Shown here: positions 13,923 to 41,477 of the stretch, in pieces
How positions within the stretch are numbered: the first letter of the stretch is position 1
Layout: each line of letters begins with the position of its first letter
DNA from: Candidatus Dojkabacteria bacterium
GTDB lineage: Bacteria; Patescibacteriota; Dojkabacteria; JAHIVN01
Reading direction: 5' to 3'
Length of the DNA: 64,000 nt
NCBI GenBank assembly: GCA_016932045.1
Contig: JAFGDO010000003.1
Location: 12,115-76,114, forward strand
Notes under the pieces: generated by a model
The model's input: the letters and a program-made list of their open reading frames with translations, nothing else
Database searches by the model: none
Told to the model about the DNA's origin: nothing
Position numbers and translations under genes: made by a program

Positions 13923-15119
13923 TTACGCACCCTGACTTCTCTTTAAGATCAACTTTTCGTTATAAGAAAACAATAAAAACGCAGAGGCAAAACACACGAG
14001 CTGGCCATAATTCCACAAAAACGAAGTTAAGAAGTTCAAACTACTCAAATATCCAAAAGAAAAAAACACCATTGGACAGAGACAAGTAATTAAAACAAAA
14101 AGAATCTTTTTCTTAAAATCGTAACCTTTCGCAAGAAAATAAACTGGCAGTATAGCAAATGTTAGAGAATATGGCTTAAACCTTGGCAAGATGAGCATTA
14201 TACACAACACACCAAAAGAAAATAATTTTAGATAACTTCTTTTCTCTCGAGTATATCTATAGAAAGTAAATAGAACAAACAGCACAAAAAGAGCGTATAG
14301 TACCACTACTAATTCATTATTGCCATCCATAATTCTTTCTGCTGCCTCATTAATAAGAAAAAACATCGAAGGATTATTCACGCCGCCTTTTTCAAAAATC
14401 GGACTGTGTTGGTTATCTATACCCCCTGTAAGTGACAAATAGTAGGAAGAAGAAATCCCTGGGAACAAAATATACGATAAAAGATGAAGTAACAAAAACG
14501 TAAGTACAACAAGAGAAAAGAGCCTCATCTTTTCTCTCTTTGAAGTCCTTGAAAACAAAAGAAGAATACTATAAAAGACTGAAGTAATCTTCAAAAAGGA
14601 AAGAACTCCAATTATAAAAGCCGGCAATCGATGCTTTCTATTAATAATACCAAGAAAAATAAAAGCAAATAAACTCAGCTCAATTAAACCCACATTCCCC
14701 ACAAGAAAATTCCAGAAAGTGGCTGCAAAACAGCTTGTGAGTAATGTAACAAAGAATAATGGCTTAAAAGTCGTATCCCCTCTTTTAACAATAAAATAAA
14801 CGAATAAAAGAAGCAGAACCCAAATAAGATGGTACGTAAAAACTGAATCAAGAAAGCGAAGAAGTTTTAAAAAAAACAGACTTAAGGGAGGGTAAATGAA
14901 CGAGAACGGACTATCTGAATAAATCTTTACATTACTTACTACATACGGATCACAACCGTCATCATAAGTTCTTACTGCCCCACAGTAAATATTAAAATCA
15001 CCACCTGCAAGATATCTCAGAAGGCCAACCTCAATGAAGAATATACTAAGAATGATGATTGTTATACAGCAAGTATTAAATGCAGCCTCCCAGATAGACT
15101 TTGATTCTTCTTCCGCCAT
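13923..15119 (-). CDS. polytopic integral membrane protein (about 10 TM; VirB6-like role possible)
   Basis: 398 aa, almost entirely hydrophobic helices. Lies directly downstream of the VirB4-like ATPase on the same strand. Confidence 0.45.
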   Translation of the reverse strand: MAEEESKSIWEAAFNTCCITIIILSIFFIEVGLLRYLAGGDFNIYCGAVRTYDDGCDPYVVSNVKIYSDSPFSFIYPPLSLFFLKLLRFLDSVFTYHLIWVLLLLFVYFIVKRGDTTFKPLFFVTLLTSCFAATFWNFLVGNVGLIELSLFAFIFLGIINRKHRLPAFIIGVLSFLKITSVFYSILLLFSRTSKREKMRLFSLVVLTFLLLHLLSYILFPGISSSYYLSLTGGIDNQHSPIFEKGGVNNPSMFFLINEAAERIMDGNNELVVVLYALFVLFVLFTFYRYTREKRSYLKLFSFGVLCIMLILPRFKPYSLTFAILPVYFLAKGYDFKKKILFVLITCLCPMVFFSFGYLSSLNFLTSFLWNYGQLVCFASAFLLFSYNEKLILKRSQGA

Positions 15120-15148
15120 AAGGAGTGAGTTAACTAAGTATCAAATCA

Positions 15149-17611
15149 CTACATAAGTTTAGGGCCTGGAAATGAAGGTGGCGAAAAGCCCCCAGGAGCA
15201 CCAAGACTTGGTGCTGCCGGCTTGTACTCCTCTTCAAGTTCAGCTCTCTGCATGATCTCTGTCTCAACCATGGATCTGTCTCTACCATACTTTAATCTCG
15301 AAAGCTCTTTTACTGTTTGAGCAATTTGCATATCAGACTTCAAGTGACCGAATGGTGCATTTTCAAGGTGAGTATAAATTGAAAAAGGAGGAGGATATTC
15401 ACCATCAACTAATAACTTTATATATGCGTTAATAGCCTCAAGGTTTACAAGGTCATTCTGATCAAATATTGGAACGAACTCGTTTTGTAAATACTGAGCA
15501 TCACTTACTCCCACCTTAAAACTTACAATTGATCCTACATTGCCAAATACTGCATCCCTAATTCGCTCATCAATCTGAGCAATATATTGATTTGCCACAA
15601 TAAGATTTAGCTTATATTTTCTTGCCTCTGAAAGAATCTGGGCAAAGTCATCCGTAGCAAAGTTCTGGAATTCATCAACATACAGGTAAAAGTCCTGTCT
15701 TTGTTCTTCGGGTATATCAGCACGGCTCATTGCAGCAGACAGAATTTTTGGCACTAATAATAAACCTAGAAATTGTGAGTTTTCTTCTCCAACCAGACCT
15801 TTTGATAGGTTCACAATTAGAATTTTCTTCTCATCCATAATCTTCCTGATATTAAAACTCGACTTACCCTGTCCAATGATATTTCTCATAAGCTTGTTTG
15901 TTACAAACCTGTCAAATTTAGACACAATATAACCCAAAACTTCACTCTTATGGAAATCACTGGTTTGTGCTATCTCATCAGTCCAGTAACGTCTAACAAT
16001 ATCATCCTTTACAAGCGGCAGCTTCTTTTTCACAAACTGGGGATCAGTTAGTATCCTCATTACTTCAACCAAGGTATTACCCTCTTCTGACATAGCAGTT
16101 AGCATAGCATTTCTAACAGCTCGTTCAAATCTCGGTCCCACAATTCCTTGCCTGTTTGGATCAAACATCTTATACATAAGCCCAATGAAGGCATTTACAA
16201 TCCTATGCTTATCCTGCTCATCTAAGAAATCAATTACGTTAAAACCTATTGGTCTTTCTGTATCAGCTGGATTAAAATAAATTACATCCTCTGCTCTCTC
16301 TGGAGGAATTCTTTCAATAAGCCACTCCGAGGGATCACCGTGAGGATCAAGAAAAGCCAGCCCTTTTCCAGCCTTTATATCCTGCCAAATCATACTCTGC
16401 AAAAAGTAGGATTTACCAACACCGGTTTTTCCAACAATATACATATGTCTCCTTCGATCATCCTCCTTTATGCATACGTCTCTAGAAACTCCTCTATATA
16501 TTGACTTGCCAAGCCATAATCCTTTTGTAGGTACCTCCTGAGAAGCAGGAGCTCTTTTTGCTAGCAACCAGTGAATATGAGGGGTTTGAATATTCTTGTT
16601 CGGGAAATGATATATTGTAGCCAATTCTTCGGTATTCAATACATTTTCGGCAACCGGAATTCTATAGATAAATCTCCTAATAAAGCTCCTTGCCTTACCT
16701 CCACTTAGACTTTTCTTTTTTAAACTATTTCCCTGTTGATTCTTTAGAGACTCAAATGCCGCAAGTATATTCATAACGTGTCTGTTGGCATCTTCTTGCG
16801 TACGTCCTACAGCAACAACCCTCAGGTCGGTCGCAAAGCCGACCTTTGTGCATTTCTTCTCAACCGCAGCAATAACATCTTCTTGAATTGGAACTTTTTT
16901 TTCTTCGTTTTCTGAAGCCTTTGACTTGAGGTTGTTCACAAAGGACTTCCCGTTTGTTCTCCATTTATTGCCGGAAGACGAGATTATAACTTGTAATGCT
17001 ATCCCCTCTCCTTCATTTAATTTGCTTATAGCATTCGTGAGTGAAGAGAGCAAATCCACAGACAAATCTTCATAAGTTTTAATCGGTTTATATTTTTCAC
17101 TCTCCTGAACAAGAACCGCAAATGCCACTTTTCCATTCTCTTCAAATATATTGTACTCCTCTACATCTCTTACATCCGCCGTAGGATATGAGGCATGAAT
17201 CTGTTTCTCTATCATCACGCGTAAATTTTTAGGTACAGCTACAAAAAACCTTATAGTTTCAGGAAAGGCTATAATTTCAAAACTAATAAAATCCGCTGCT
17301 TTAAATTTACTCTTTATGCCTTTTTGTGACGAGAGGCCGTACAACGAGGAAAAAAGCTGATCCATAGCATTTATCTCTACTTCGTTATTTTGCGGGACCC
17401 TGACCTCGAGAAGATCCATACTAAGTGATCTTTTCTCAAACGCAGCCTCCTTTATCCTTCTTGCCAATAACATAAACACGAAAATACTTACAACCAAAAC
17501 GAGTATGAATAAGAGGATAGCCCCTACCATAAGGATACCATTGTCAGACTGCTGGGTTCTTACCGAATTCCCTGTTTCACCTATTGTTTGTGCAATAACT
17601 TGTGAAATCAT
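15149..17611 (-). CDS. type IV secretion-type ATPase of the FtsK-HerA superfamily (VirB4/TraC-like; VirD4/TraG-like also possible)
   Basis: 820 aa. N-terminal TM (ILMVGAILLFILVLVVSIFVFML). Walker A IVGKTGVGKS, DPHGD box (compare DPxGE of coupling proteins), Walker B YLYVDEFQNF. Confidence 0.7.
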   Translation of the reverse strand: MISQVIAQTIGETGNSVRTQQSDNGILMVGAILLFILVLVVSIFVFMLLARRIKEAAFEKRSLSMDLLEVRVPQNNEVEINAMDQLFSSLYGLSSQKGIKSKFKAADFISFEIIAFPETIRFFVAVPKNLRVMIEKQIHASYPTADVRDVEEYNIFEENGKVAFAVLVQESEKYKPIKTYEDLSVDLLSSLTNAISKLNEGEGIALQVIISSSGNKWRTNGKSFVNNLKSKASENEEKKVPIQEDVIAAVEKKCTKVGFATDLRVVAVGRTQEDANRHVMNILAAFESLKNQQGNSLKKKSLSGGKARSFIRRFIYRIPVAENVLNTEELATIYHFPNKNIQTPHIHWLLAKRAPASQEVPTKGLWLGKSIYRGVSRDVCIKEDDRRRHMYIVGKTGVGKSYFLQSMIWQDIKAGKGLAFLDPHGDPSEWLIERIPPERAEDVIYFNPADTERPIGFNVIDFLDEQDKHRIVNAFIGLMYKMFDPNRQGIVGPRFERAVRNAMLTAMSEEGNTLVEVMRILTDPQFVKKKLPLVKDDIVRRYWTDEIAQTSDFHKSEVLGYIVSKFDRFVTNKLMRNIIGQGKSSFNIRKIMDEKKILIVNLSKGLVGEENSQFLGLLLVPKILSAAMSRADIPEEQRQDFYLYVDEFQNFATDDFAQILSEARKYKLNLIVANQYIAQIDERIRDAVFGNVGSIVSFKVGVSDAQYLQNEFVPIFDQNDLVNLEAINAYIKLLVDGEYPPPFSIYTHLENAPFGHLKSDMQIAQTVKELSRLKYGRDRSMVETEIMQRAELEEEYKPAAPSLGAPGGFSPPSFPGPKLM

Positions 17612-17935
17612 GATTAAAATGGTAGCAGAATTTGAATAGCATTTTCTACAATTAAAATGGAAATTACAAATTCTATACTCAAATTCCTAAACTACAAAGT
17701 ATATTTTTTATTCTACATTTAAATAATCTAAAAGAAAAGTGTCATTGATAGCTCGCCTTAAGTGATTGCGGAAAAGTAAGGGCATGATTTTGTTAAATTT
17801 CGGTAGAATTGATCTAGATGATCAAAAATTATTGAAATAATCAAATTTGCTCACTTAAAACATACGAACCATTTTGATCATTTACATCAAGAATATTTGT
17901 TCAGTGAGGAAACCGTAGCTTCTCCGTTGAGAAAA

Positions 17936-18469
17936 TTATGACTCGGTCTTATACATTCTAACCAACCTGTTTATAAGTACAAACAACCATGTTTTGGCAG
18001 AAAAAACATCACCTTTAACTTTGTTGCCTTGAGTTTTTTGGCCCGCTAACGATGCGTTTCTTGAGAGCTGATACCCATAAACTTTAAATGGACTTTCAAA
18101 CTTCTGTTGGTCCGGAACAACATTTGGTGCTTCAACAGCCTTCTCTTTTTTCTCCTCCTCAACTCTCTCTTCTTTTAAAGCTTCAGATCCTTTCTCTGGT
18201 TCGACTTTTACTTCAGGTACTACTAATCGTTCCCCACCCTCAACTCTAGATGGTACCTCCGGAGAAGCACCAGGGATCACGGGCTGTATTTGCTGAACTG
18301 GCACTTGAGGAATATTTGAGACTTGCTGTCCCCGTTGGGTAGGGACTTGGGGAGAATAAGACATCGGATTTGCCGATGCAAATGGATAGGGAGTAGTAAC
18401 CGCTCCTACTCCAGTATTCTGGGAATTTGGATTGTCTGATACCTGATTCTGTATAATCTGATTGTCCAT
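17936..18469 (-). CDS. Pro/Gln-rich low-complexity hypothetical protein
   Basis: 177-aa ORF with P/Q/V-rich repeats and a charged EEKKEK stretch. No motif. Confidence 0.35.
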   Translation of the reverse strand: MDNQIIQNQVSDNPNSQNTGVGAVTTPYPFASANPMSYSPQVPTQRGQQVSNIPQVPVQQIQPVIPGASPEVPSRVEGGERLVVPEVKVEPEKGSEALKEERVEEEKKEKAVEAPNVVPDQQKFESPFKVYGYQLSRNASLAGQKTQGNKVKGDVFSAKTWLFVLINRLVRMYKTES

Positions 18470-18651: not shown

Positions 18652-19128
18652 TCAAAACTTTTCAATTCCAGCAATATCTTCTCTTACCTGTCTCTTCATC
18701 TCCCTCTCTTTAATTTTTTTCCTCTTATCATACTTCTTCCTTCCTTTCCCAGCACCTATTTTCACTTTTAATTTCCCATTTTGACTAAATATCTCTAGTG
18801 GGATTATAGCCATTTTCTTGGCATCTTGGAGAATTCGTAATTCTTCAACCTCTCTTTTAGTTAATAGTAATTTCCTCCTTATCCTTGGATCGTAATCAGT
18901 AATATCCGCAAACTTCCACTTTGAAATGTGAGCATTTATAAGCCATACTTCACCCCTTTCAACTCTTACAAAGCTCTCTTTTAGACTGATATTCCCATTT
19001 CTTACAGACTTGACTTCGTACCCTCTCAAAACCATACCTGCTACAAAACTCTTAGAGATTTCATAATCAAACCTAGCACGTTTATTCTGAGCTAGTATCT
19101 TTTTACTCGAGGGATTCTTTGTATTCAT
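18652..19128 (-). CDS. smpB: SsrA-binding protein SmpB
   Basis: KILAQNKRARFDYEI...GYEVKSVR is the canonical SmpB N-terminus. Start set at the internal ATG (19128); the table ORF extends to 19200. Confidence 0.85.
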   Translation of the reverse strand: MNTKNPSSKKILAQNKRARFDYEISKSFVAGMVLRGYEVKSVRNGNISLKESFVRVERGEVWLINAHISKWKFADITDYDPRIRRKLLLTKREVEELRILQDAKKMAIIPLEIFSQNGKLKVKIGAGKGRKKYDKRKKIKEREMKRQVREDIAGIEKF

Positions 19129-21301
19129 CAACCTTTGTAAGTTCGACTCTAAATATCTTAGTTTCGTCAAGAATATACATAACTCTACCTTCGTTATCAA
19201 CTATTATGTCCTTTATGTTACTCAGATAGTTATTCTCTCCTCTATATATGATCTGTCCGACATATCTTCCCTGATCAGGAGTCAGACTGCCCCCCTTTGT
19301 CACAACAACAACACGCCTATTTGCACTATCTCCAACATAAACGAGAAAATCATCCAGCTCTAAACAGGAAGCATCATTAATAGACTTATCAAGTCCGACC
19401 AAAGCATATGGATCAAGTTTTTCGCCAAAATATCTTACAATACCATCTGCCTGAGTCAGTATATATATCTTGCCATCAATCTCCATGTCTTTCGCCCCTC
19501 CAAACTGTGTACTCGAAAGCCTGAGTTCCGGTAAAGAATAGCCCGAGGAATACTTCGTAATTTTCCTCACATCATTCTTACTAGGTCTAAGTAAGTACAA
19601 TATATTTGTTCCATCTGGAGTAACATAATTATCTATTTCTTTCACTTCGCCAACACTTGTTGAGGATAAACCCGCAAGTCTCTCAACTTTCTTCTCGTCT
19701 AGATGCAATTTTAAAATCCCCTCCCCTCCATCAAAAATTATCATGTCTCCCTCCCCATCGAAAACGATTGAAGACGGAGACCTTAAGTCTGTATCTTCAC
19801 CCACAACACTGTAAACCTCCCCCCCCTCTACACTTAACTCGTAAATAGTAGATAAATTAGGATCAGAAACATACAATCTCGAACCAAGCATAGTCATATC
19901 AGCTGCCTGCGCTCCTTCAATGTAGCCTGCAATATCTGTAATAATATTCCCATCATCAAGCAAAATTACTTTTCGAACGTCATCCATAATAGCATACCCC
20001 TCTTCTTCCTTTGCTCTGATCTCATCAGTCATGATGCCGTACTCTTTTATGCTACTCAGTGATCCTAGCGCCTCTTCCAAAACTGCAACTGCTTCGGCAA
20101 TATTTCCTGCAGCACCAAGATTTCTTCCATTATTAAATTTCTCATCAATATCCGAAAGTACTGCCATTATTTCAGTCTTTTTATCATTCGTATCACTATG
20201 CCTTTGTATACCTCTTATGCTGATGTAAAGCAAACAGACCACAACAATGATAAGAACTATAATCCCTCTAATTGAGGTTTTTGGACCAGCACCTTTAAGA
20301 TACATACCTCTCTTACTCATACCCAGAAGACCTTCCCAGATATGAGTCTTTCCGAATACGAGTAACTTCTGTCCAAATTCTTTAAGTTTTATAAGCACAA
20401 CCTTATATGTCTCTTTATCAGTAACTTTATCCTTTAGATTCTTAATTGAATTTCCTTTCCTTAGGTCATTGTGCCGTTTAGCCTTCTCTAGCTCTTCGTC
20501 CCTCCCGGTTTCTTGAGGGATTTTTAATTTAGACTCCTCATACTCTTTCACAGATACGTCATCTTCTTCCTCAACTTTTGTTTCCTTCTTGCCTATCTGA
20601 TTAATCTTCTCAGACTCAAATTTACTGTCTGTATGCAACAAGGCTTCTCCTGCTTTATTTGAGATTCGGAGTAGTAAGATTCCAAGTAGAGAATCCTGCT
20701 TTACCCCCTTAATACGATCAAAATTAAAATCCCGAACTACATTCTGCATATCCTTTTCCGAGATTGTAAGCCCGCCTTGTGGAGAAAGAAGGACAAAATT
20801 ATCGTTCTCCTTGAACTTCCCGCTTCCCGTTTTAATAAGTCCTCTACCAGAGAGATCCTTTAATCCATCTGATAAACTGATAAGTCTGTCATCCCGTTCT
20901 AGCAATATACTTCCCTCCCCCAAAATAGCCATGTATACATACTCCTTATAGGTCACTAAGGCTTCTATATTCAAGTCAATTCCCGACTCCGCTGCTACTT
21001 CTTCTCTATCAAGTAAATGCTCTAGCCTCTTTGCAGTAGACATAATTGCTTTTTCAAGTCTAGCTATAATGTTTCTCTCATTTCCCTCGTTGTAGTAAAC
21101 ATCTTGGAGATTTTCTGATAGCAGATCTCCTGCCATTCTGCTATCAAATTCCTCTGGAGCGCTCAAACTTATAACAACATAAAGCTTGCCAAATAAGGAA
21201 GCCCTTCCTCCCTCAGTAGGAGTTACAAAAATGCCTGACCATTTCCCTCCTTTTGGATCACCAGTGAAAAATGTTGTATCAAAAGAATATTTTTCTTCCA
21301 T
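19103..21301 (-). CDS. single-pass membrane protein with a cytoplasmic N-domain and an extracellular beta-propeller-like (NHL/YVTN-type repeat) C-domain
   Basis: TM IRGIIVLIIVVVCLLYISI at about aa 330. The C-terminal 390 aa has repeated hydrophobic-G/D-rich blade-like segments (YVSDPNLSTIYEL, IVFDGEGDMIIFDG, YVGDSANRRVVVV). Confidence 0.5.
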   Translation of the reverse strand: MEEKYSFDTTFFTGDPKGGKWSGIFVTPTEGGRASLFGKLYVVISLSAPEEFDSRMAGDLLSENLQDVYYNEGNERNIIARLEKAIMSTAKRLEHLLDREEVAAESGIDLNIEALVTYKEYVYMAILGEGSILLERDDRLISLSDGLKDLSGRGLIKTGSGKFKENDNFVLLSPQGGLTISEKDMQNVVRDFNFDRIKGVKQDSLLGILLLRISNKAGEALLHTDSKFESEKINQIGKKETKVEEEDDVSVKEYEESKLKIPQETGRDEELEKAKRHNDLRKGNSIKNLKDKVTDKETYKVVLIKLKEFGQKLLVFGKTHIWEGLLGMSKRGMYLKGAGPKTSIRGIIVLIIVVVCLLYISIRGIQRHSDTNDKKTEIMAVLSDIDEKFNNGRNLGAAGNIAEAVAVLEEALGSLSSIKEYGIMTDEIRAKEEEGYAIMDDVRKVILLDDGNIITDIAGYIEGAQAADMTMLGSRLYVSDPNLSTIYELSVEGGEVYSVVGEDTDLRSPSSIVFDGEGDMIIFDGGEGILKLHLDEKKVERLAGLSSTSVGEVKEIDNYVTPDGTNILYLLRPSKNDVRKITKYSSGYSLPELRLSSTQFGGAKDMEIDGKIYILTQADGIVRYFGEKLDPYALVGLDKSINDASCLELDDFLVYVGDSANRRVVVVTKGGSLTPDQGRYVGQIIYRGENNYLSNIKDIIVDNEGRVMYILDETKIFRVELTKVDEYKESLE

Positions 21302-21661
21302 CTAGAAAAATTTATACTTAAAAATATCTCGCATAAGCTTATTCTCTAAACTAAGAAAAGTCAGAATTAAACAAGAATTACTATCAAAACCATAACTGCA
21401 AGAACAAGAAAGATATGCAATATACTAAGCAGATTCAAGCATCCTGCAAGTTTTGTCCTTATAGCCCGATTCATCAAGAAAACTTGTCTTGCTATAAGAA
21501 CTGATACAAGAAAATATATAAACAGTAAAACAATTATAAATGTTTTTATAACTAGATGCAGTAAATTTCCTGTTTCCATAATAAAATTTTTACATAAATT
21601 TATTTTCTAACTCCTCCCATATTCAACTGTTGGCAGGTTGGCTTTAGACCAATCGTACTTA

Positions 21662-22282
21662 CTACTTAGGCTTCTTGACCATAAGATCCCTTAGATCCAT
21701 GATCTTGTCTCTTACCCAAGCGGGTTTAGATACCGAAAGAAAATCAAACTCTCTTCTTTCTCCCGCTGTCTGTACATAAACATCACCAAAATTAAAAAGC
21801 ATCGGGAAAAACCCTATATTCTCCTGCGTCGCATCAACTATACTTTCAAGTCCGGCCTCACTTATCTTATGATAAGCAAATGGACTAAAGTCAAAGTCAA
21901 TGACTCGTTCACTTGTAATTACATAAATATTAAAATACCAATCCAAAAACTTCATAAAGGCGTTTGTAATGATCAGTACATACCACATTACAATCGCCGA
22001 CAGAACTTGCCCTCGTGTAAGACTAAAACTCTCATAGATATCCGCATCTATGGCTTTCAAGAATATCAATACTCCTATAGGTATAAGTATAGAGATGGCT
22101 GTCATGACTACCCAACCAAAATTAGTAATAATATGTTTTCTAAGCATAATATAAACCCTTTCGTTTGGATTCTGAGTTTCAAATTCCAGCTTCTCAGGGA
22201 GAATTATAACAGAGCTTATAGCACCGTCCTTTTTCTCAGGTAAGATAGTATGAAGCGATTCTGCTTTGTGAGTCATTTTCAA
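21662..22282 (-). CDS. bacterial PH-domain (YdbS/YdbT-like) membrane protein
   Basis: Two TM helices followed by a PH-like segment ITSERVIDFDFSPF... Confidence 0.45.
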   Translation of the reverse strand: MKMTHKAESLHTILPEKKDGAISSVIILPEKLEFETQNPNERVYIMLRKHIITNFGWVVMTAISILIPIGVLIFLKAIDADIYESFSLTRGQVLSAIVMWYVLIITNAFMKFLDWYFNIYVITSERVIDFDFSPFAYHKISEAGLESIVDATQENIGFFPMLFNFGDVYVQTAGERREFDFLSVSKPAWVRDKIMDLRDLMVKKPK

Positions 22283-24858: not shown

Positions 24859-26433
24859 TTGAGCTTTCACACATACTTGTCTACTTTTTTAAAAATAGTA
24901 AAATTAGGAAGACACATAGATATGATAGAAAAAATACATAGCATAACTGAATATTTAAATAGACAACCTCTTTTATATGTTGGGCTAATACTTCTTGTTG
25001 CTTCTTTTTTGCTTTTTATCCCTAATGACCCTGATTTCCCCTGGCATCTTAAGTATGGAGAATTAACACTTGAACAAGGGCCAATATCACACGATCCATA
25101 TTCGCACACATTCGCAGACTATACTTTTTACGACTATCAATGGTTCACACATGTCCTCATGTACACCTTTTATAAACTAGGTGGTTTCACACTTGTTGCG
25201 ATATTGTATGGCGTAATTGTTCTTGCTGCCCTACTCTTTAGCGTGAATACTCCTATAAAGAAAGTTGTCACAAATAAAAGCAAGATAATACTACTGTTAG
25301 TGGGATTACTTGCTGTGAAACCGATTATCGGCATAAGACCTCAAATGGCATCCGTTCTCGGGATAGCTATCGTTTACTTCCTTACGATAAAATATCTTAG
25401 AACCAAAAGTAAGACAGTATTTCTCATACCTTTAGTAATACTCATCTGGGCAAATCTTCATCCCGGTTTTCTTTCAGGAATTATGGTTCTTCTTATTATT
25501 ATATTTTCTGAGATTTTAAAAGTAATACTAAGAAAGTTAGGAGTGTCACAAAAGCAAGACCCCTTTTATGAGAAAAAACCTCCAAGTTTTAAAATACTAA
25601 TCCTAGTACTTATTCTTTCATCTTGCGCTACCCTTTGCACTCCATTCTTCTATAATATAGTTAAACAGTCGGTACTTTTCTCACTAGACGCCTATGCCCA
25701 AGAGCACATAGTTGAATGGCTTGGCGTTAACTTTCAGGAATTGACTGGAAAATTTATTGTCATCTACATGCTGATCACAGTGGCATCAATATTTAGAAGG
25801 AAGTTTATGAACTTAACCGAGGTTCTGATTGTGGCAGTCTTCGGTTTCATGGCGCTACAAAGTGTACGCCATATACCGCTTTTTGTCATCGTTTCGATTC
25901 CAAGTATACTCGCAAGCCCTGATTGGAAGTTTTTAAACCGACTTGATAAGTTCAAGTCAACGTTCTGGCTATTTACAAAAAGTTCCTTTTTGACCGCAGG
26001 ACTTTTAGTTTTCCTATTTACTACTTTTCAATTTTTTATAATCAACTCGGACAGGAAGGCAATATACGGAGAAGTAAAATACCCTTATGAGGCTGTGCAA
26101 TTCCTAAAGGAAAAAAATTATGAGGGGAATATCTTTAATAATTACGGCTGGGGTGGTTTTTTAATATGGGAGTATCCTGAAAAAAAGACATTTGTCGATG
26201 GACGTATGACAAGTTGGCGAATAGATCATGTTTCTATCCTTGAGGAATATGTAGATCTTTCCGATCTTCTAACTCCAGACTGGCAGGAAAAGTTACAGCA
26301 ATATGAAGTAAGAATTATTCTTTCAGATACCTCTACTCCCTTATGCAACGTGCTTAGAAACTCTAGTGACTGGGAGCTTGTGTATGAAGACGACCTTTCA
26401 GTAGTACTCTATAAAAAAGAGCCTTACGAGTAA
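24859..26433 (+). CDS. polytopic membrane protein with C-terminal soluble domain (GT-C-like topology; possible glycosyltransferase)
   Basis: 524 aa. About 11 TM helices over aa 30-400, then a roughly 120-aa hydrophilic domain. Topology guess only. Confidence 0.45.
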   Translation: MSFHTYLSTFLKIVKLGRHIDMIEKIHSITEYLNRQPLLYVGLILLVASFLLFIPNDPDFPWHLKYGELTLEQGPISHDPYSHTFADYTFYDYQWFTHVLMYTFYKLGGFTLVAILYGVIVLAALLFSVNTPIKKVVTNKSKIILLLVGLLAVKPIIGIRPQMASVLGIAIVYFLTIKYLRTKSKTVFLIPLVILIWANLHPGFLSGIMVLLIIIFSEILKVILRKLGVSQKQDPFYEKKPPSFKILILVLILSSCATLCTPFFYNIVKQSVLFSLDAYAQEHIVEWLGVNFQELTGKFIVIYMLITVASIFRRKFMNLTEVLIVAVFGFMALQSVRHIPLFVIVSIPSILASPDWKFLNRLDKFKSTFWLFTKSSFLTAGLLVFLFTTFQFFIINSDRKAIYGEVKYPYEAVQFLKEKNYEGNIFNNYGWGGFLIWEYPEKKTFVDGRMTSWRIDHVSILEEYVDLSDLLTPDWQEKLQQYEVRIILSDTSTPLCNVLRNSSDWELVYEDDLSVVLYKKEPYE

Positions 26434-26465: not shown

Positions 26466-26927
26466 TTATGTTCCACTAGGCTTATTATTTACGTTTAGAG
26501 CATTATTAAATTCACCTCCGGCTCCGAATAGCCACAATACAACAAAAATTCCAACAATAGCTATAATCATTGCTGCAAACCCCATAAGTATTGCTTTCAC
26601 GGCGGCCTTTGATTCTTCTAGTTTAGATGCATCACCCTGGCTCGACATGAATTTAATTCCGGCCATAGCCGAATATATGATTGCAACGATAAAAACAACA
26701 ACAAAAAGGATCGTTAGTCCCCATTGAACTCTAACCTTTGCCCATGCAACAGGTCCTTCTTGTCCAGTTCCAAGTCCAAGGCCTGAAATAATTTTTTCTA
26801 TCCAATCAGGAACATAGTCTTGTGCATATACCGGATTTGCTGCATTAAAAAGTACAGCTCCAGCCACACCTGCAAAAATTGAAGCTTTCGAGAGTGTTTT
26901 AACTACTACATCTTTTACTCTTTCCAT
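26466..26927 (-). CDS. VirB2/TrbC-like T4SS pilin-family paralogue
   Basis: Signal peptide (AAN..VYAQ), TM1 ILFVVVFIVAIIYSAMAGI, loop KFMSSQGDASKLEESKAAVK, TM2 AILMGFAAMIIAIVGIFVV. Confidence 0.55.
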   Translation of the reverse strand: MERVKDVVVKTLSKASIFAGVAGAVLFNAANPVYAQDYVPDWIEKIISGLGLGTGQEGPVAWAKVRVQWGLTILFVVVFIVAIIYSAMAGIKFMSSQGDASKLEESKAAVKAILMGFAAMIIAIVGIFVVLWLFGAGGEFNNALNVNNKPSGT

Positions 26928-26999: not shown

Positions 27000-27677
27000 T
27001 TAGTTACAAGACCAGTCAGAAGCTCCTTCAGAACACTCGCACTCACAGTCAGAATAAACATCTCCGCACTGGTCAGTTTTAGATTCATATTGCACATGAT
27101 CACCACAGACTGCAAGATTTTGGGCAAGATCAAACACACTCCCAACTCCAATTAGCCACGTTACAACACTTACGCCTATAAAGACAACTACAACAACCAT
27201 AAGACCCTTAAAGGCATTTGAAACCCATTTTCTTGCACTTTGAACCTTAGTTTCTTCTCCCATACTACTCATCCATCTAATTGCCCCTATCCCAATTGCA
27301 ACTATAAACGCAACAAAAAGAATAGCTGTGAAAAAAGTATATAAAAAAGCAATGATGGACCAAATACTAGCTGTGCCCTCCATACTCCAAAAGTTGACCG
27401 GCTTCAAAATATTTAAAACCAAACCTCCAGAACCAAATACTTTCTCTAGCCAATCATCACCATCAACTGGAATTATAACTTCGCCTTCAGATTTCTGCGT
27501 TGAGATTTCGCAACATACTTGCCCACTTGCACAAGGCTCGCATAAACTAGAATCTGCAGGCACATCGCATTGGCTCTCGTACCGACACCCATAGTAGCCT
27601 GCTTCAGCAACCCGTGGCTGAAAAGCCCCAACGACCAAAAATAAAGTAATGATTATGATAAATGTTATTCTCTTCAT
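27000..27677 (-). CDS. cysteine-rich secreted domain fused to VirB2/TrbC-like pilin module
   Basis: Signal peptide, then GYYGCRYESQCD...CEPCASGQVCCE. Pilin module TM1 - SSMGEETKVQSARK - TM2. Additional C-terminal Cys cluster CGDVYSDCECECSEG. Confidence 0.55.
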   Translation of the reverse strand: MKRITFIIIITLFLVVGAFQPRVAEAGYYGCRYESQCDVPADSSLCEPCASGQVCCEISTQKSEGEVIIPVDGDDWLEKVFGSGGLVLNILKPVNFWSMEGTASIWSIIAFLYTFFTAILFVAFIVAIGIGAIRWMSSMGEETKVQSARKWVSNAFKGLMVVVVVFIGVSVVTWLIGVGSVFDLAQNLAVCGDHVQYESKTDQCGDVYSDCECECSEGASDWSCN

Positions 27678-27711
27678 ATTGTTTACTTAATTTATAATGG
27701 CAATGTGAATT

Positions 27712-28266
27712 CTAGCTCCCAAGGATTTCATCAAGAAAAGAAAAATCTGTGATGTTGACACCAAGGATTCCTGCCATAACACCTAGAATTACAAGAAAGC
27801 CAAATGTTATCACAATAGCCATTAGTCCATTCTTTATTACCTTTTTTGCCTTCTGAAGCTTTTCTTCGCTGTCTCCCGCTGTTATCCATAAAAAGCCGCC
27901 GTATCCAATAACTCCGACAAGACCTGCAACTAACGCTGATATAGCTACAATTATTAATGTTTTGATAAATGTTTTTATATACGAAACATCAACATCTATA
28001 CCTATGAGACGAAAACTTTCCGGAGGCCCATCGTCTCCCCAAATCTTCGTTCCCCAACCTTCAAATGCTTCACAACACACCATACCACTTGGGCAATCCC
28101 CTCCACAATTTGATACCGCCACTTGCTTATCGGCACTGCACTGGCTTTCCCACTGACAAGTATATCCCGCCGCATGTACAGGATTAAATCGGCCAAATGA
28201 AACAATACAGAAAACAGTCGTCAGTAAGACTAAAATAGCTTTTTTCTTCATTTTATTTTTTCTCAA
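27712..28266 (-). CDS. cysteine-rich secreted domain fused to VirB2/TrbC-like pilin module (paralogue of 27000-27677)
   Basis: Signal peptide, then GYTCQWESQCSADKQVAVSNCGGDCPSGMVCCE with the same Cys spacing as its neighbour. Pilin module TM1 - AGDSEEKLQKAKK - TM2. Confidence 0.55.
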   Translation of the reverse strand: MRKNKMKKKAILVLLTTVFCIVSFGRFNPVHAAGYTCQWESQCSADKQVAVSNCGGDCPSGMVCCEAFEGWGTKIWGDDGPPESFRLIGIDVDVSYIKTFIKTLIIVAISALVAGLVGVIGYGGFLWITAGDSEEKLQKAKKVIKNGLMAIVITFGFLVILGVMAGILGVNITDFSFLDEILGS

Positions 28267-28610
28267 CTTACAAGAGTTCCCTGAACTCCAAGTAAACTAG
28301 CAAGAACTTTTACTATTAATGGGGCCAATGCAATAATTGCAAATCCTACTGCTGCTGCAGTAGCAATTTTCATACTCTTTGCCTCTTTCTCAGGATTTCC
28401 ACCCGCTGTCATACGAACGAATCCAGCATAGATAACGCTAAAAATAAACCCAAGTACAGCAAGCGGCGTTACAACACCACTCACTTTAGTTATAAGTTCG
28501 CCTATACTTTCAAGTGTAATGGGACTAGGAATAGATATAGCAAAAACAGGAGTATAACCAAGGATAAAAAACAATATAGTGAGTATTAAAATTTTTACTG
28601 TTTTTCTCAT
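28263..28610 (-). CDS. minimal VirB2/TrbC-like T4SS pilin
   Basis: 115 aa. Signal peptide, TM1 VVTPLAVLGFIFSVIYAGFV, loop RMTAGGNPEKEAKSMK, TM2 IATAAAVGFAIIALAPLIV. Four-nt ATGA overlap with the downstream gene suggests an operon. Confidence 0.55.
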   Translation of the reverse strand: MRKTVKILILTILFFILGYTPVFAISIPSPITLESIGELITKVSGVVTPLAVLGFIFSVIYAGFVRMTAGGNPEKEAKSMKIATAAAVGFAIIALAPLIVKVLASLLGVQGTLVS

Positions 28611-28680
28611 TTTATGAAAAAGTTAATCTTAGATGAAGATAGTTATTTAAAACATAAATATCGATCTTCTTGTTCCCCGA

Positions 28681-29796
28681 TTAGAGAAATATCTCACCAA
28701 TTCCAAGTATATCTAACCCTATGAAATTTAGCAAAATCGGTATCATAGCACCAAAAATGACTGCAGCGATAGCACTCACCGCAATACTCTTACCTTCCTT
28801 TATCTTTTCGGGATCATCGGTATTTAACATAATTCCCGCTTGAATGAATCGCACAACAGCTAGTGCTGTTACAACACCGACAAAGATTCTCATAACTGCT
28901 ATGATGATTCCTTTTTCCGATGAATTTATACAGCCCAGCTCTGTCCAAATATTTCCATCTGCCATTTCTACATTACATACTGATGCTTCTCCTCCATCAG
29001 CACTACAAGCACAAGTTGGATTTTCCCCTTTCCAACTACATACGCACAAACAACATGCCTCATTCATTTCTCCATCTTCACCTCTGCAAACTTCTTCACA
29101 TGTTAGAGTCGAAGGAAGCTCACTGCCCCCTGGGCCTGGACTTGGTCCTGGTGGAGTTGGATCGGAATCCTGCCAGCCACTGCTTCCACACCACCATTCT
29201 GCTCCAGCTGGAGCAGGACAGGTAGGAACATCAGTAATTCTCATGCTCTCTCCCTGACTAAAGCAAGAATTAACCCAAGGCCATATAAATCCTGTTCCAG
29301 GACAACAATCATTTGCCCCCCACTGACATCCTGCCATACATTTATTAGTACCAGCACATGTTAAAAAATCATCCTTAAGTATATCGGCAATATCAGAATT
29401 GTCTAGGGTTTCCTTTACTGCTCCACCTGCCGCCGTACAATAAAGTCCATAAGTGCATGCTCTATCATTTTTATAAAAATATGTCCTTGCCTCACTTACG
29501 TCATCATCGCTGCATTCACCAGGATTCATCTCCTTTATTTTCTCTGCTATTGCTGATCTTTTTGTCCCCCTAGATTCTGCACAACAATCGTCATTCCCCG
29601 AGACATCCGTATGTTCGTAACCATCATCACATCCCCATATGGCATCCGTTTTTGCATAAACAATATTCATTGCACCAATAGAGATTGATGCTATAAGAAT
29701 AATTATATACACAAGCGATCCTCTTACTATTGATCTTTTTAGATTATGAAGTATACGCATAAAATAAACAATTAGAACCCTTAGAAAAATTAACAA
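28681..29796 (-). CDS. large cysteine-rich ectodomain (about 27 Cys) fused to VirB2/TrbC-like pilin module
   Basis: N-terminal TM/signal, then a roughly 250-aa Cys-rich region (CCAESRG, CAGTNKCMAGCQWGANDCCPG, CCLCVCSWKGENPTCAC). Pilin module TM1 - NTDDPEKIKEGK - TM2. Confidence 0.55.
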   Translation of the reverse strand: MLIFLRVLIVYFMRILHNLKRSIVRGSLVYIIILIASISIGAMNIVYAKTDAIWGCDDGYEHTDVSGNDDCCAESRGTKRSAIAEKIKEMNPGECSDDDVSEARTYFYKNDRACTYGLYCTAAGGAVKETLDNSDIADILKDDFLTCAGTNKCMAGCQWGANDCCPGTGFIWPWVNSCFSQGESMRITDVPTCPAPAGAEWWCGSSGWQDSDPTPPGPSPGPGGSELPSTLTCEEVCRGEDGEMNEACCLCVCSWKGENPTCACSADGGEASVCNVEMADGNIWTELGCINSSEKGIIIAVMRIFVGVVTALAVVRFIQAGIMLNTDDPEKIKEGKSIAVSAIAAVIFGAMIPILLNFIGLDILGIGEIFL

Positions 29797-29809
29797 TTCC
29801 GTATCTTTT

Positions 29810-32383
29810 TTACAGATTTACATTATCCCCAGACCTCACCTCACCCCTAACTATCATCTCCGCAACCTTATTCTCAACCTGCTCCTGTACTACTCTTCTC
29901 ATTTCTCTTGCACCGAATACTGGATTATAGCCTAAATGAGCAAGTCTTTCTAGTAGTGCATCACTGTAGTTCAGTTTAATACCTTTATCCAAAAGTTTCA
30001 AGCGAACCTGCTCTACAAACTTCTTTGCAATCAGCTTAACATCCTCACGGGAAAGCGGCTTAAACATAATTATTTTATCGAAACGGTTTAAGAATTCTAT
30101 CCTAAATACTCTTTTTAATTCCTCCAAAGCCTGAGTTCTGACTTCTTCATATACTTTGTCTTGCTCAATAAGATCTGCAATCAATTTTGATCCGGCATTT
30201 GACGTTGCAATAATTATAGTATTTGAAAAATCTATCCTGCGTCCTAATCCGTCATCAAGATACCCTTCGTCCAAAACCTGCAGGAACAGATCCAGCACCT
30301 TTGGGTTTGCTTTGTCTATCTCATCAAGAAGAACTAGTGAAAAAGGATTGTCATAAACCGGTTCAGTTAAGAATCCTCCCTCAAACGATCCCTGCTCCGA
30401 AGTATAGCCAATTAATCTTTTCAAATTTTCCTCCTCATGATACTCGCTCATATCAAGCCTCACCATCCTCTTTTCGCTCCCGTAATAAACTTCTGCAACC
30501 GTTTTAGCTACCTCTGTCTTTCCAACACCTGTTGGTCCAAAAAACAAAAATGAAGCAATTGGTTTGCCAGCTTGTCCAAGCCCGCTTCTTGCTCGACGTA
30601 ATGCCCCACATACAGCATCAATTGCTTCGTTCTGGTCAATCACTCTCTTGTGCATTTCACCCTCAAGCTTAGCTAGTTTTTCCGTCTCACTCTCTTTGAT
30701 CGACCCCAGCTCTACCCCAACTTTTGAAGAAACTATCTTCGCAACCTCATCATACTCAATCGGCTTTTTACCTTTCAAATTTTTGAAATTAACAACAGTT
30801 TCCTTAAGCAGATTTATAGCTTTATCCGGAAGTACCCTGTCATATGCGAATTTATGTGAAAGCTCAATTGAAGCTTTAACACCTGAATATGCAATTTTTA
30901 TGTTGTACTCATTTTCAATCGTTGGAACCTCATCAATGACAATTTGAGTAGCCACTTCATCAGTAGGTATATTCATCTCTACTTCTGAGAATATACTTGC
31001 TAGCGCTTTATGAGGTCGGATGAATCTTGTAAACTGCCCTTTATCGCTTGTTACTATCATCCTAAAGTTGTGAGCATCATAAGCATTGACAATGATATTT
31101 ACGATCTCCCCGGTTATTTCTCTTCGCAAATTTAAAAGTTGATCAAAATTATCAAGTACAAGAATAACATTCTTTGATTGTGCTACCTCCTCAAATACTT
31201 TCTGCAATTTCTTCTTAAACGAATCTACGTTTTTTGAAGTTGAAAAGGCTTTGTTAAAATCGAAGCCGATAAGCCTCATATCTTGAAGCTTCGGAGGTAT
31301 ATCTTCTACTACCATCCTAACAGCAAGGCTTTTAATCAAAGTTGTTTTACCAACCCCAGGTTCTCCAAGAACTAGAACTCCACTCTTTTCTCCTTTTTCA
31401 AGCAGAGCAATAAGTTGATTTAATTCGTTCTCGCGGGCAAGTGACACTACAAATTCACCTTGAATAACAGCGTTAGTAAAATCGCGACAATAGGAGTTCA
31501 ACATAGGAGTAAAACGAGAAGTATATGCCCTGTTAACAGTCGTCTTCGGCTTGATGCTCACCTTATCTTTCCATACCTCCACATACCTTTGTTTCAATGC
31601 CTCGTTTTGCAACCAGAGTTTTATACCATCAAAGTCCTTGGAGATGATATTGAACCTCTGAAGATATTCTAAAAAAAACTTTTGAAGGATAACAAAAGTG
31701 AAGCTCTCCTCCCCTGCGTATTTAAAATTATTCTCAAAGGCAAATGAAAACGAGTCGGCAATAAGATCTCTTAGAACTTCAACTTTACCTTTACCGACCG
31801 TTGCTTGAGAAAGTAATCCCAGATCAAAATTCTCAAATGATAAACCAAGACGCTCAATTAGAATACGGGCCCTATTCAGCTTCAAAAGCTTCACAAATAA
31901 CTCTTGCAAATAGTCATTCTTGGGAATATTAAATATATAGTCAAGGAGCCAGACAGTATGATGATTTAAGTAGTCGGTTACTTCGATAGTAAGGTTAGTC
32001 CTGCCTCGCTCAAGATCCTTTCTCAATTTATGTAAATTCTTCACCCGAGCCTTATCAAGAAAAACTCCCCGGTCCCTTAAAAAATAAAGCGAATATAGAA
32101 AAATACAAACAAATATCCAAAAGGCAAGACCTGTAGCTCCTTCAACATTAACTATCCTTTGAAAGTAGTAGCCCTTTGTAACCTCGTAGACTATTATCCC
32201 GACTTCTGTAACAAAAACCAGCCAAAAAAGAATTCTCCCCAATACCACCTGGAAAACATTTTCAATCTTCCTTACCCCTTTACCATCTCGCAAATACCGC
32301 CAATCAACGGTAAATTTTACATCATTTAACTCGGGAATATTTATTCTCAATATCTCAGAATCATTCATAAATCGATATAGCAC
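29810..32383 (-). CDS. membrane-anchored ClpA/ClpB-family double AAA+ ATPase (Hsp100-like)
   Basis: Two N-terminal TM helices replace the Clp N-domain. D1 has Walker A GEPGVGKT but DNFD in place of the DE Walker B. D2 has GPTGVGKTE, Walker B LVLLDEID, sensor IIIATSNAG, GAREMRR. Confidence 0.7.
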   Translation of the reverse strand: MLYRFMNDSEILRINIPELNDVKFTVDWRYLRDGKGVRKIENVFQVVLGRILFWLVFVTEVGIIVYEVTKGYYFQRIVNVEGATGLAFWIFVCIFLYSLYFLRDRGVFLDKARVKNLHKLRKDLERGRTNLTIEVTDYLNHHTVWLLDYIFNIPKNDYLQELFVKLLKLNRARILIERLGLSFENFDLGLLSQATVGKGKVEVLRDLIADSFSFAFENNFKYAGEESFTFVILQKFFLEYLQRFNIISKDFDGIKLWLQNEALKQRYVEVWKDKVSIKPKTTVNRAYTSRFTPMLNSYCRDFTNAVIQGEFVVSLARENELNQLIALLEKGEKSGVLVLGEPGVGKTTLIKSLAVRMVVEDIPPKLQDMRLIGFDFNKAFSTSKNVDSFKKKLQKVFEEVAQSKNVILVLDNFDQLLNLRREITGEIVNIIVNAYDAHNFRMIVTSDKGQFTRFIRPHKALASIFSEVEMNIPTDEVATQIVIDEVPTIENEYNIKIAYSGVKASIELSHKFAYDRVLPDKAINLLKETVVNFKNLKGKKPIEYDEVAKIVSSKVGVELGSIKESETEKLAKLEGEMHKRVIDQNEAIDAVCGALRRARSGLGQAGKPIASFLFFGPTGVGKTEVAKTVAEVYYGSEKRMVRLDMSEYHEEENLKRLIGYTSEQGSFEGGFLTEPVYDNPFSLVLLDEIDKANPKVLDLFLQVLDEGYLDDGLGRRIDFSNTIIIATSNAGSKLIADLIEQDKVYEEVRTQALEELKRVFRIEFLNRFDKIIMFKPLSREDVKLIAKKFVEQVRLKLLDKGIKLNYSDALLERLAHLGYNPVFGAREMRRVVQEQVENKVAEMIVRGEVRSGDNVNL

Positions 32384-32440
32384 TAAAAAGTATCACAAAG
32401 AATAAATTCTATTTAATAACTGAGCACCTAAACCTTCACT

Positions 32441-32818
32441 CTAAATAAAAAATCTCACTATCTGAACAAGACACAAAGGCGGAAGAATAACCCAAATAAA
32501 AACAACCGAGATTAGCGGAATAGTAATAAGGATCTGTATAAGTGACCCGCCAAACACCCAAACCACTCGAAAAAATAGACTGATAATTCTCCCACTTATA
32601 CTGGCGTCCTGATACATAGGAACAAATAGATTTGCGAGCATAGGCAGAATATTTAAAGTAGCAAGAGAAAGACTCCAGAATGAGTAGGTCATCTGTAAGC
32701 AAGCACGTAACTGAGCACCGTACCACCAGATCCAGAAGTTAAGGAAGTATTTCTTTAGCATGTCTTGAAAGATAATAGTCTCTTGAATTCTATCAGAAGG
32801 ATTATAAGAGGTAAACAA
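32441..32818 (-). CDS. small integral membrane protein
   Basis: 125-aa ORF with three predicted hydrophobic helices, upstream of and co-oriented with the Clp-like gene. Confidence 0.35.
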   Translation of the reverse strand: MFTSYNPSDRIQETIIFQDMLKKYFLNFWIWWYGAQLRACLQMTYSFWSLSLATLNILPMLANLFVPMYQDASISGRIISLFFRVVWVFGGSLIQILITIPLISVVFIWVILPPLCLVQIVRFFI

Positions 32819-41445: not shown

Positions 41446-41477
41446 ACGTTATATATCACCTTTTATTATATATCACA

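Follow-up and report, generated by a model that had tools for sequence, protein, structure and literature searches.

We analyzed a window of 64,000 nucleotides (nt) from a 115,485-bp contig of a metagenome-assembled genome (MAG) of Candidatus Dojkabacteria bacterium, a member of the candidate phyla radiation (CPR, or Patescibacteria). The GC content of the window is ~38%, most of its genes lie on the minus strand, and GC skew is strongly negative throughout. Our subject is the region between a tRNA-Ile gene and groEL, which encodes six pilin-like proteins and an ATPase, both resembling parts of type IV secretion systems (T4SSs), together with a membrane-anchored Clp-like AAA+ ATPase, a SpoIID-like cell-wall enzyme, a PH-domain membrane protein, a DUF5657 protein, a beta-propeller protein and SmpB. 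An initial annotation, made from the sequence without database searches, had read this region as a reduced T4SS-like surface system of a CPR-type bacterium. The genes it listed all exist, on the minus strand, and the source, a dojkabacterium, is a CPR bacterium. The NCBI proteins MBN2015408 to MBN2015422 are the same 15 genes of the locus. Profile scans with Pfam and NCBIfam covered the ~57 larger open reading frames (ORFs) of the window. Many MAG loci among the relatives with which the locus was compared carry unreliable organism labels.

The six pilin paralogues, all on the minus strand, lie at 24303-24803 (166 amino acids [aa]), 26466-26927 (153 aa), 27000-27677 (225 aa), 27712-28266 (184 aa), 28263-28610 (115 aa) and 28681-29796 (371 aa), and are numbered 1 to 6 here in that order. 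Five of them match PF18895 (T4SS_pilin). Only paralogue 5, at 43 bits, exceeds the cut-off, and paralogues 1, 3, 4 and 6 give E values of 2.7e-4, 1.3e-3, 9e-5 and 1.7e-5, respectively. Paralogue 2 has no Pfam pilin match, and by alignment it has the same C-terminal module as the others, in which a short charged "GGxxEK" loop joins two hydrophobic helices. A hidden Markov model (HMM) of our own, seeded with the six modules of the window and refined iteratively with related loci, gives E values for the six pilins between 1e-16 and 3e-28 (3e-28, 7e-24, 2e-22, 3e-19 and 1e-16 for paralogues 1, 2, 3, 4 and 6) and finds no further match anywhere in the window. Across Dojkabacteria, PF18895 is matched by 54 of 62 pilin modules and TrbC/VirB2 by 13 of 62. 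A sequence search of the Protein Data Bank (PDB) with the pilin profile was uninformative, returning only designed helical proteins. The agreement of PF18895, the shared module and our own HMM bears out the proposal that these are six VirB2/TrbC-like paralogues.

All six pilins carry Sec signal peptides with an AxA-type cleavage site. Paralogue 5, which is identical to the NCBI protein MBN2015420.1 (named hypothetical), is the minimal and most conserved copy, with 64-71% identity in sister genomes. Paralogue 3 contains 12 Cys, and both its N-terminal and C-terminal extensions are Cys-rich; paralogue 4 has an ectodomain with 7 Cys; and paralogue 6 consists of a signal/anchor, an ectodomain of ~250 aa with 24 Cys, and a C-terminal VirB2-type two-helix module. 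Counterparts of all six, matched by position and best hit, are found in sister genomes at 35-71% identity. At the DNA level, no repeats between the paralogues were found beyond chance-level short ones, and we therefore reject recent duplication, gene conversion or a phase-variation cassette. By sequence, the six pilins are anciently diverged tandem paralogues of the VirB2/TrbC type. Paralogue 5 also aligns over its whole module with the pilin-like protein Mbov_0395 of a Mycoplasma integrative and conjugative element (NCBIfam NF045849; E 2.9e-6), scoring 26.9 bits where the family cut-off is 40. Mbov_0395 is a single gene beside a VirB4 in a mobile element, whereas the window pilins form a tandem array. 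The match indicates that a VirB2-like protein exists in some monoderm (MPF-FATA) systems.

The ATPase (15149-17611, minus strand; 820 aa) is identical to MBN2015408.1, which NCBI names "DUF87 domain-containing protein". It matches Pfam DUF87, TrwB_AAD_bind (27.1 bits) and TraG-D_C (24 bits) above their gathering cut-offs and, more weakly, the TraD and VirD4-like families of NCBIfam. Its homologues carry PF10412, PF02534 and PF12696, and in these homologues the N-domain is Pfam DUF8128, a domain of which we found no mention in the literature searched. The protein has a single transmembrane (TM) segment (aa 31-49), followed by the N-domain (aa 55-350) and a motor in which Walker A (aa 394-401) and Walker B (aa 642-651), both invariant in 57 homologues, flank a helical insert (aa 465-595). 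A sequence search of the PDB returned only DotL, TrwB and, at a weaker level, HerA. By its sequence, the motor is thus of the coupling-protein (T4CP) type. The same is true of distant members of the DUF8128 family, all nine of those checked having a T4CP-type motor. We also considered and rejected an identity as FtsK. The FtsK_SpoIIIE profile reaches only E 0.014 over 21 residues at the P-loop, no FtsK gamma domain (KOPS/XerD) was found in the protein, and its C-terminus is a low-complexity tail. The initial annotation had named as fatal to its reading that the ATPase should turn out to be a non-secretion FtsK/HerA protein and that the putative pilins should match no pilin profile. Instead, the ATPase matches coupling-protein profiles above cut-off, and the pilins do match pilin profiles.

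An AlphaFold2 model of the full-length ATPase, with a predicted local distance difference test (pLDDT) score of 85.6, places eight helices (aa 465-595) between the two Walker motifs, an arrangement also found in TrwB. When this model was searched with Foldseek, the best match was TrwK/VirB4 (E 2e-16, ~860 aligned columns), and the C-terminal half aligned to TrwB with a TM-score of 0.60-0.64 and a root-mean-square deviation of about 5 A. The N-domain modelled alone (aa 55-350) has a pLDDT of 93, and all 14 of its PDB matches at E<1e-3 are TrwK/VirB4 (E 5.6e-8 to 3e-4, TM-score ~0.5); matches beyond these top 14 are non-specific. The sequence profile of the VirB4 N-domain (CagE_TrbE_VirB) does not match the ATPase, and these fold comparisons come from AlphaFold2 models and Foldseek output that gives no aligned residue ranges. 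The models suggest that the ATPase combines a VirB4-like N-domain fold with a VirD4/TrwB-type motor. Its earlier description as a "VirB4/VirD4-class ATPase" is therefore upheld by sequence for the VirD4-type motor; for VirB4 there is no profile match, and the likeness is confined to the fold of the N-domain.

The ATPase shares with VirD4, TrwB and TraD a nucleotide-binding domain with Walker A/B motifs and an all-helical insert, an N-terminal membrane anchor, and matches to TrwB_AAD_bind, TraG-D_C and (in homologues) T4SS-DNA_transf. It differs from them in its extra VirB4-like N-domain of 300 aa, in having one TM segment rather than two, in its housekeeping-level conservation, and in having neither a relaxase partner nor adjacent T4SS core genes. 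With VirB4/TrwK it shares, as judged from the models, a two-domain architecture, over which the full-length model aligns collinearly, whereas its motor is nearer to the T4CPs by sequence.

The VirB4 ATPase is the sole universal marker of T4SSs. Among the ~57 larger ORFs of the window, there is no Pfam or NCBIfam match to VirB4, VirB3/PrgI, TrsD, VirB6/TrbL, VirB8-11 or a relaxase, in keeping with the initial report that relaxase, VirB11 and VirB8-10 scaffold genes are missing, and none of the conserved genes of the locus encodes a protein with five or more TM segments. A 10-TM protein adjacent to the ATPase had been put forward as a VirB6-like candidate, and this assignment does not hold. The gene (13923-15119, minus strand) encodes a GT87-family glycosyltransferase (GT87 E 2.7e-18, 67 bits), which has no TrbL match and no homologue in 93 related loci. 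It sits exactly between the ATPase stop codon and the tRNA-Ile gene (anticodon TAT; 13774-13848, plus strand), a conserved neighbor downstream of the ATPase. In relatives, this tRNA directly follows the ATPase without a GT87 gene (e.g. at 19570-19646 of locus L082 and 10303-10377 of locus L084). The GT87 gene therefore looks like a small strain-specific insertion at the tRNA. A gene on the plus strand that had been overlooked (24859-26433) interrupts the pilin array between paralogues 1 and 2 and encodes a polytopic membrane protein of 524 aa with ~9 TM segments. This protein belongs to no family, with no Pfam, NCBIfam or PDB match and no homologue in the 93 related loci, and by sequence it, too, appears to be a strain-specific insertion. 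A different polytopic protein (DUF2079) is encoded between groEL and h125, the small gene upstream of Clp, in a distant relative (L089, 8153-9574).

Tandem VirB2-like pilin arrays and T4SS parts without a relaxase are known from Patescibacteria (PMC12102498, PMC10633639, PMC12857230). The T4SS-derived parts of the window are therefore of a kind already described in the CPR, as the comparison drawn in the initial annotation had suggested. In a survey of 3,035 Patescibacteria genomes, VirB4 defines the system and is accompanied by TrsD, VirB3, VirB6 and arrays of 2-11 VirB2-like pilins (PMC12102498). VirD4-like coupling proteins, by comparison, numbered 5,713 in 2,918 genomes, and only 148 of them lay near virB4 (PMC12102498). 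Among the entries of Table S1 of that survey, at least two Dojkabacteria genomes are VirB4-positive (PMC12102498). By analogy with these, a VirB4 core probably exists elsewhere in the genome from which the window comes.

The T4SS of Southlakia epibionticum (SEML1_0006-0019; PMC12102498) is among the closest known systems. Both sets of genes are chromosomal, lack a relaxase and belong to a monoderm CPR host; both include tandem, divergent PF18895/VirB2-like pilins, six in each case; and in both a VirD4-like ATPase is encoded apart from virB4. They differ in that the S. epibionticum array lies inside a virB4 cluster with VirB3, VirB6, TrsD and a hydrolase, whereas none of these genes was found among the larger ORFs of the 64-kb window. 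The array of the window instead comes after the membrane-anchored Clp-like AAA+ ATPase and before the string of SpoIID, PH, propeller and smpB genes and the DUF8128 ATPase.

Outside the CPR, relatives of both T4SS-derived components occur together. A tblastn search against plasmids gave 23 full-length matches to the ATPase, and all those inspected are haloarchaeal megaplasmids, at ~25% identity. On Haloterrigena salifodinae pHTS138 (NZ_CP069189.1, 147-12051), the DUF8128 domain and the T4CP are separate overlapping genes, encoding a 399-aa DUF8128 homologue (BLASTP 2e-16) and a 1,034-aa T4CP (phmmer 2e-38 to the motor of the window ATPase). The same cluster encodes a PF18895 pilin (E 1e-8 to paralogue 5), a TrbL_3/VirB6-like protein and a 1,099-aa "conjugal transfer protein", for which we found no PDB or Pfam support as a VirB4. 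A second haloarchaeal plasmid (L095, 6687-13839) keeps the genes for the conjugal transfer protein, DUF8128 and the T4CP. These clusters thus resemble the window in their PF18895 pilin, DUF8128 domain and T4CP-type motor. They differ in that the two adjacent genes are one fused gene in the CPR, in that they include the TrbL_3/VirB6 gene and the 1,099-aa protein, and in being plasmid-borne, archaeal and only ~25% identical. The unknown proteins of the haloarchaeal cluster show no homology to SpoIID, PH, propeller or h177, the small protein encoded next to the ATPase. The shared cluster ties the ATPase and pilin families to one ancestral conjugation-like machine, and it fits the published placement of Patescibacteria VirB4 in the monoderm/archaeal MPF-FATA class.

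On one side, the locus is flanked by genes for an ATP-dependent DNA ligase, Fic, PolA, FtsH, two tRNA-Met, DivIC, an Xer-type recombinase, an FAD protein and tRNA-Ile, and on the other by groES-groEL, ftsA and the genes for ribosomal protein L25, Jag and YidC. These are ordinary core genes, and the region is therefore part of the core chromosome rather than a mobile element. The housekeeping flanks and a gene order conserved across the class rule out a mobile-element origin, and the initial view that this is not a conjugative element holds. The Xer-type tyrosine recombinase (11136-12020, plus strand), which is divergent and lies a few kb downstream of the ATPase, was considered as the integrase of an island and rejected, as it is a conserved neighbor.

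In Dojkabacteria, the order is ftsA, a gene for a 629-aa protein, groES, groEL, h125 and Clp where present, a pilin array of 5-8 genes, sbcCD in some, and SpoIID. It continues with PH, DUF5657, propeller, smpB, a small protein, the ATPase, tRNA-Ile, Xer, ftsH, polA and ligase. This order, including the flanking housekeeping genes, is kept across Dojkabacteria, as the synteny check suggested at the outset reveals, down to 38-42% Clp identity. Because unrelated housekeeping genes belong to the conserved stretch, however, gene order by itself argues weakly for a shared function. The region is also separable into blocks. On one 201-kb Dojkabacteria contig, groESL, Clp and the pilins lie ~30 kb from the block running from sbcCD and SpoIID to the ATPase. 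The h125-Clp pair is absent at the site in a sister genome (L082), and in a distant subclade a UvrD-like gene takes its place upstream of the pilins. In Microgenomatia, the ATPase sometimes adjoins SpoIID, PH and smpB, and no pilin module is detectable within 10 kb of it. The linkage of pilins and ATPase is lineage-specific.

These observations bear on whether the locus could be a machine complete in itself, namely a minimal, VirB4-independent T4SS-like pilus or secretion apparatus with the DUF8128 ATPase as its only motor. SpoIID would then be a VirB1-like wall opener, PH, DUF5657 and propeller proteins would form a scaffold, and the Clp-like ATPase would extract or recycle pilins. In its favor, the two-domain architecture of the ATPase is collinear with VirB4, the genes are tightly spaced on one strand and conserved across Dojkabacteria, the ATPase lies beside SpoIID, PH and smpB in some Microgenomatia too, the Clp gene appears to be co-transcribed with the pilins, and T4CP homologues occur in ~500 more Patescibacteria genomes than does VirB4. 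Against this, the conserved genes include no polytopic VirB6-like channel, the pilin block can be separated from the ATPase block, the ATPase of Microgenomatia has no pilins near it, and Clp is missing at the site in the sister genome and the distant subclade. Moreover, the haloarchaeal clusters with the same pilin and DUF8128/T4CP families have TrbL_3 and a separate large "conjugal transfer" ATPase, and share nothing with SpoIID, PH or propeller. We consider such a self-contained machine to be quite improbable.

Instead, the absence of VirB4 and VirB6 matches among the larger ORFs of the window, the occurrence of the ATPase-bearing string without nearby pilins in Microgenomatia and the separability of the blocks lead us to favor, with moderate confidence, the view that the region is a satellite of the Patescibacteria T4SS, made up of a pilin array and an orphan coupling-type ATPase, and not a complete T4SS. 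We hold with similar confidence that it comprises, in the core Dojkabacteria chromosome, two T4SS-derived modules with envelope and housekeeping genes, themselves a conserved string, between them. The description of the region as a reduced T4SS-like system is thus right as to the pilins and the coupling-type ATPase; it does not stand as to a single reduced system, as the larger ORFs of the window include no VirB4 or VirB6 match, the blocks are separable, and accessory genes had been counted in. Under the satellite model, the pilins would be inserted by Sec and pooled in the membrane, from which a VirB4-based machine encoded elsewhere would extract them and polymerize a surface filament. The 115-aa paralogue 5 would be the major subunit, and the ectodomain-bearing pilins, three of which are Cys-rich (7, 12 and 24 Cys), would be minor or tip subunits contacting the host cell. 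The Clp-like ATPase might serve in quality control of pilins or membrane proteins, or in pilin extraction. The DUF8128 ATPase would be a hexameric NTP-driven translocase at the membrane. It would either dock on the T4SS base by way of its VirB4-like N-domain or have been exapted to serve some conserved function of the cell.

Several observations weigh against the satellite model. VirB4 was not located in the window, and its presence in the genome is deduced from other Dojkabacteria. Synteny of the whole region, housekeeping genes included, says little about function, and both the 201-kb contig and the Microgenomatia loci, with their lineage-specific linkage, loosen the tie between pilins and ATPase. 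No other VirB4- or T4CP-like ATPase lies within 10 kb of the DUF8128 ATPase in 80 genomes. T4CP homologues, which may not be of the DUF8128 type, occur in 2,918 Patescibacteria genomes compared with 2,417 for VirB4 (PMC12102498), and the T4CP homologue of S. epibionticum, which likewise may not be of the DUF8128 type, is not essential for epibiotic growth (PMC12102498). Finally, the ATPases of Dojkabacteria and Microgenomatia share 50-56% identity, where the corresponding values are 58-60% for GroEL, 44-50% for FtsH, 38-43% for PolA and 36-39% for SmpB. Such housekeeping-level conservation, as judged from sequence identity, is atypical of coupling proteins.

This last point suggests a different explanation, in which the ATPase, a translocase exapted for housekeeping, has nothing to do with the pilins and its nearness to them reflects the conserved gene order of small genomes. 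Such a translocase might move DNA (in segregation, dimer resolution or DNA uptake) or an envelope substrate. Besides the conservation of the ATPase, this explanation can draw on the many invariant residues of its all-alpha domain (AAD)-like helical insert, on the size of the family (1,810 clusters at 50% identity), and on one member (P0379, 988 aa) with a C-terminal S1 RNA-binding domain. In 37 of 80 genomes, a divergently oriented Xer-type recombinase is also encoded no more than a few kb from the ATPase, and DivIC, FtsH and PolA often come next to it; the rarity of T4CPs near virB4 and the dispensability of the one tested point the same way. On the other hand, the sequence relatives of the ATPase are coupling proteins and not FtsK, to which it is linked by the P-loop match alone, with no gamma domain; its only full-length relatives outside the CPR sit in conjugation-like clusters that include a pilin of this family; and in TM7x an ftsK is annotated in addition. 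On balance, we find an exapted ATPase with no connection to the pilins unlikely, though less so than a self-contained machine.

The Clp-like ATPase (29810-32383, minus strand; identical to MBN2015422.1) is encoded immediately upstream of the pilin array. Upstream of it in turn lies h125 (32441-32818, minus strand), which encodes a small hydrophobic protein of 125 aa belonging to no family. In all six loci that have Clp, h125 is its direct upstream neighbor, the end of h125 overlapping the start of Clp in L089, L091 and L093 and abutting it in L092. An intrinsic-terminator-like hairpin directly after groEL (32951-32980, minus strand; 13-bp stem and T-run) separates groESL from the h125-Clp-pilin unit, and the distance from the Clp gene to the first pilin gene is 13 nt in the window and 2-100 nt across loci. 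From this arrangement, the pilin array is most likely co-transcribed with h125 and the Clp-like ATPase, and it is this operon structure that suggests a link of Clp to the pilins. Heat-shock control through a CIRCE element (controlling inverted repeat of chaperone expression) that would tie the Clp gene to groESL was rejected, there being no CIRCE in the window.

In keeping with its first description as a membrane-anchored Clp-like AAA+ protein, the gene product has two AAA+ modules, a ClpB_D2-small domain and two N-terminal hydrophobic or TM segments, and an N-terminal anchor is present in 46 of 47 family members. The family comprises ~47 clusters, and the few members with a named source are all labelled Dojkabacteria or Patescibacteria. 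There is no Clp_N match; AAA_lid_9 is uninterrupted (aa 476-572), and the protein therefore has no M-domain; and no ClpP-docking loop (an IGF/IGL tripeptide after the D2 Walker B) is found in aa 728-760. The D1 Walker B is degenerate (LVLDN) with loss of the catalytic Glu, and the D1 pore loop (KYRG, Tyr) is lost throughout the family, while the D2 Walker motifs are kept. The protein thus lacks what would mark it as ClpB (Clp_N, an M-domain and two active rings) and what would mark it as ClpA/ClpC (a ClpP-docking loop). It shares with ClpV and ClpB two AAA+ rings, the ClpB_D2-small domain and the absence of a ClpP-binding loop, and with ClpV a specialized N-terminus and the lack of an M-domain. 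It differs from both in that its N-terminus is a two-TM anchor with an unknown helical domain, in its catalytically degenerate D1 ring without the pore-loop Tyr, and in belonging to a lineage-specific family. These features suggest a specialized unfoldase with a layout comparable to that of ClpV.

Alternatively, the protein could be a general Hsp100 chaperone of the lineage, parked beside groESL with no specific link to the pilins. In every locus with a Clp gene, this gene and h125 directly follow groES-groEL, the NCBI name of the protein is Clp ATP-binding subunit, and the pilin array is intact in L082, where Clp is absent at the site. The strong terminator between groEL and the Clp unit and the short distance to the first pilin gene argue against a general chaperone. 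So do the losses of the protein (Clp_N, M-domain, and both pore loop and catalytic Glu of D1) and its gains, namely a membrane anchor and a small membrane protein as dedicated partner. We regard a general chaperone as a real possibility, one that we lean against only slightly.

Between the pilins and the ATPase lies the string of envelope and housekeeping genes, all on the minus strand. Those that had been listed before are all supported by profile matches, directly or through orthologues. The SpoIID/LytB-like cell-wall enzyme (22370-24169) matches Pfam SpoIID at 31.8 bits against a cut-off of 23 bits and has an N-terminal anchor and a long coiled coil; its match to TIGR02669 (5e-19) is below the NCBIfam cut-off, and that to the PDB SpoIID structure 4rwr is weak. 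The two-TM membrane protein with a bacterial PH domain (21662-22282) matches weakly on its own, and its assignment comes from orthologues, of which 15 of 22 match bPH_2 and 6 of 22 match bPH_3. The small two-TM DUF5657 protein (21367-21579; Pfam 46.9 bits) is conserved in Dojkabacteria and some Microgenomatia loci. The propeller protein (19103-21301; 732 aa) is bitopic, with a cytoplasmic domain of ~340 aa that matches no family, one TM segment and an extracellular beta-propeller. Its orthologue profile matches Pizza6 (1e-30) and the NHL domain of PknD (1e-15), indicating a six-bladed propeller of the NHL/PknD type. It shares with PknD the extracellular NHL propeller and single TM segment, with the no-family cytoplasmic domain in place of a kinase.

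The next gene, smpB (18652-19128; Pfam SmpB 2.3e-48), encodes the tmRNA-binding protein, and it probably starts 26 nt before the propeller gene upstream of it ends. No tmRNA gene is present in the window. In both Dojkabacteria and Microgenomatia, smpB travels with SpoIID, PH and propeller. Between smpB and the ATPase lies h177 (17936-18469), which encodes a 177-aa low-complexity protein conserved in Dojkabacteria. A VirB1-like wall-opening role for SpoIID is possible. SpoIID, PH, DUF5657, propeller and smpB are otherwise best read as conserved neighbors of the T4SS-derived modules.

Some other features of the window lie farther from these genes. At 630-4234, the ATP-dependent DNA ligase, which is of the archaeal/eukaryal type, adjoins the Fic protein and a DeoR-like helix-turn-helix protein, and this trio also follows polA in several relatives. 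At 39973-42077, an island of plus-strand genes with a local reversal of both GC and AT skew encodes a 195-aa unknown protein, a SLOG-cluster4 protein and a nucleoside 2-deoxyribosyltransferase/TIR-like protein; a deoxyribosyltransferase gene similar to that of the island lies near ftsA in the related locus L093. Two unusual proteins are encoded at 48094-49293 and 43528-45588. One is a Lon-like AAA+ protein that combines AAA with Lon_lid and has no protease domain, and the other, of 686 aa, has an unknown N-terminus of ~300 aa followed by a PEP-utilizers mobile domain and then PPDK_N.

Few functions have been shown to be essential to cultivated Patescibacteria in their epibiotic life, and T4SS genes with their pilin arrays belong to these. 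In Dojkabacteria, a pilin array and a coupling-type ATPase are fixed in the core chromosome apart from the VirB4 core. The locus also offers three leads. First, a widespread "orphan T4CP" of the CPR, whose rate of evolution is as low as that of GroEL, is predicted from structural models to have an N-domain like that of VirB4. Second, the presence of the same pilin/DUF8128/T4CP set in haloarchaea points to an archaeal or monoderm-type origin of the pilins as well. Third, the pilins appear to share a transcript with a specialized Clp-like unfoldase bound to the membrane. A bolder proposal is that the DUF8128 ATPase family is a hybrid or intermediate of the two T4SS motor families and, in Dojkabacteria, forms a VirB4-independent apparatus with the six pilins and the ClpV-like unfoldase, which would extract or recycle pilins. 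We think this improbable, but if it were true, a VirB4-independent pilus or translocation apparatus would be part of the core physiology of these episymbionts.

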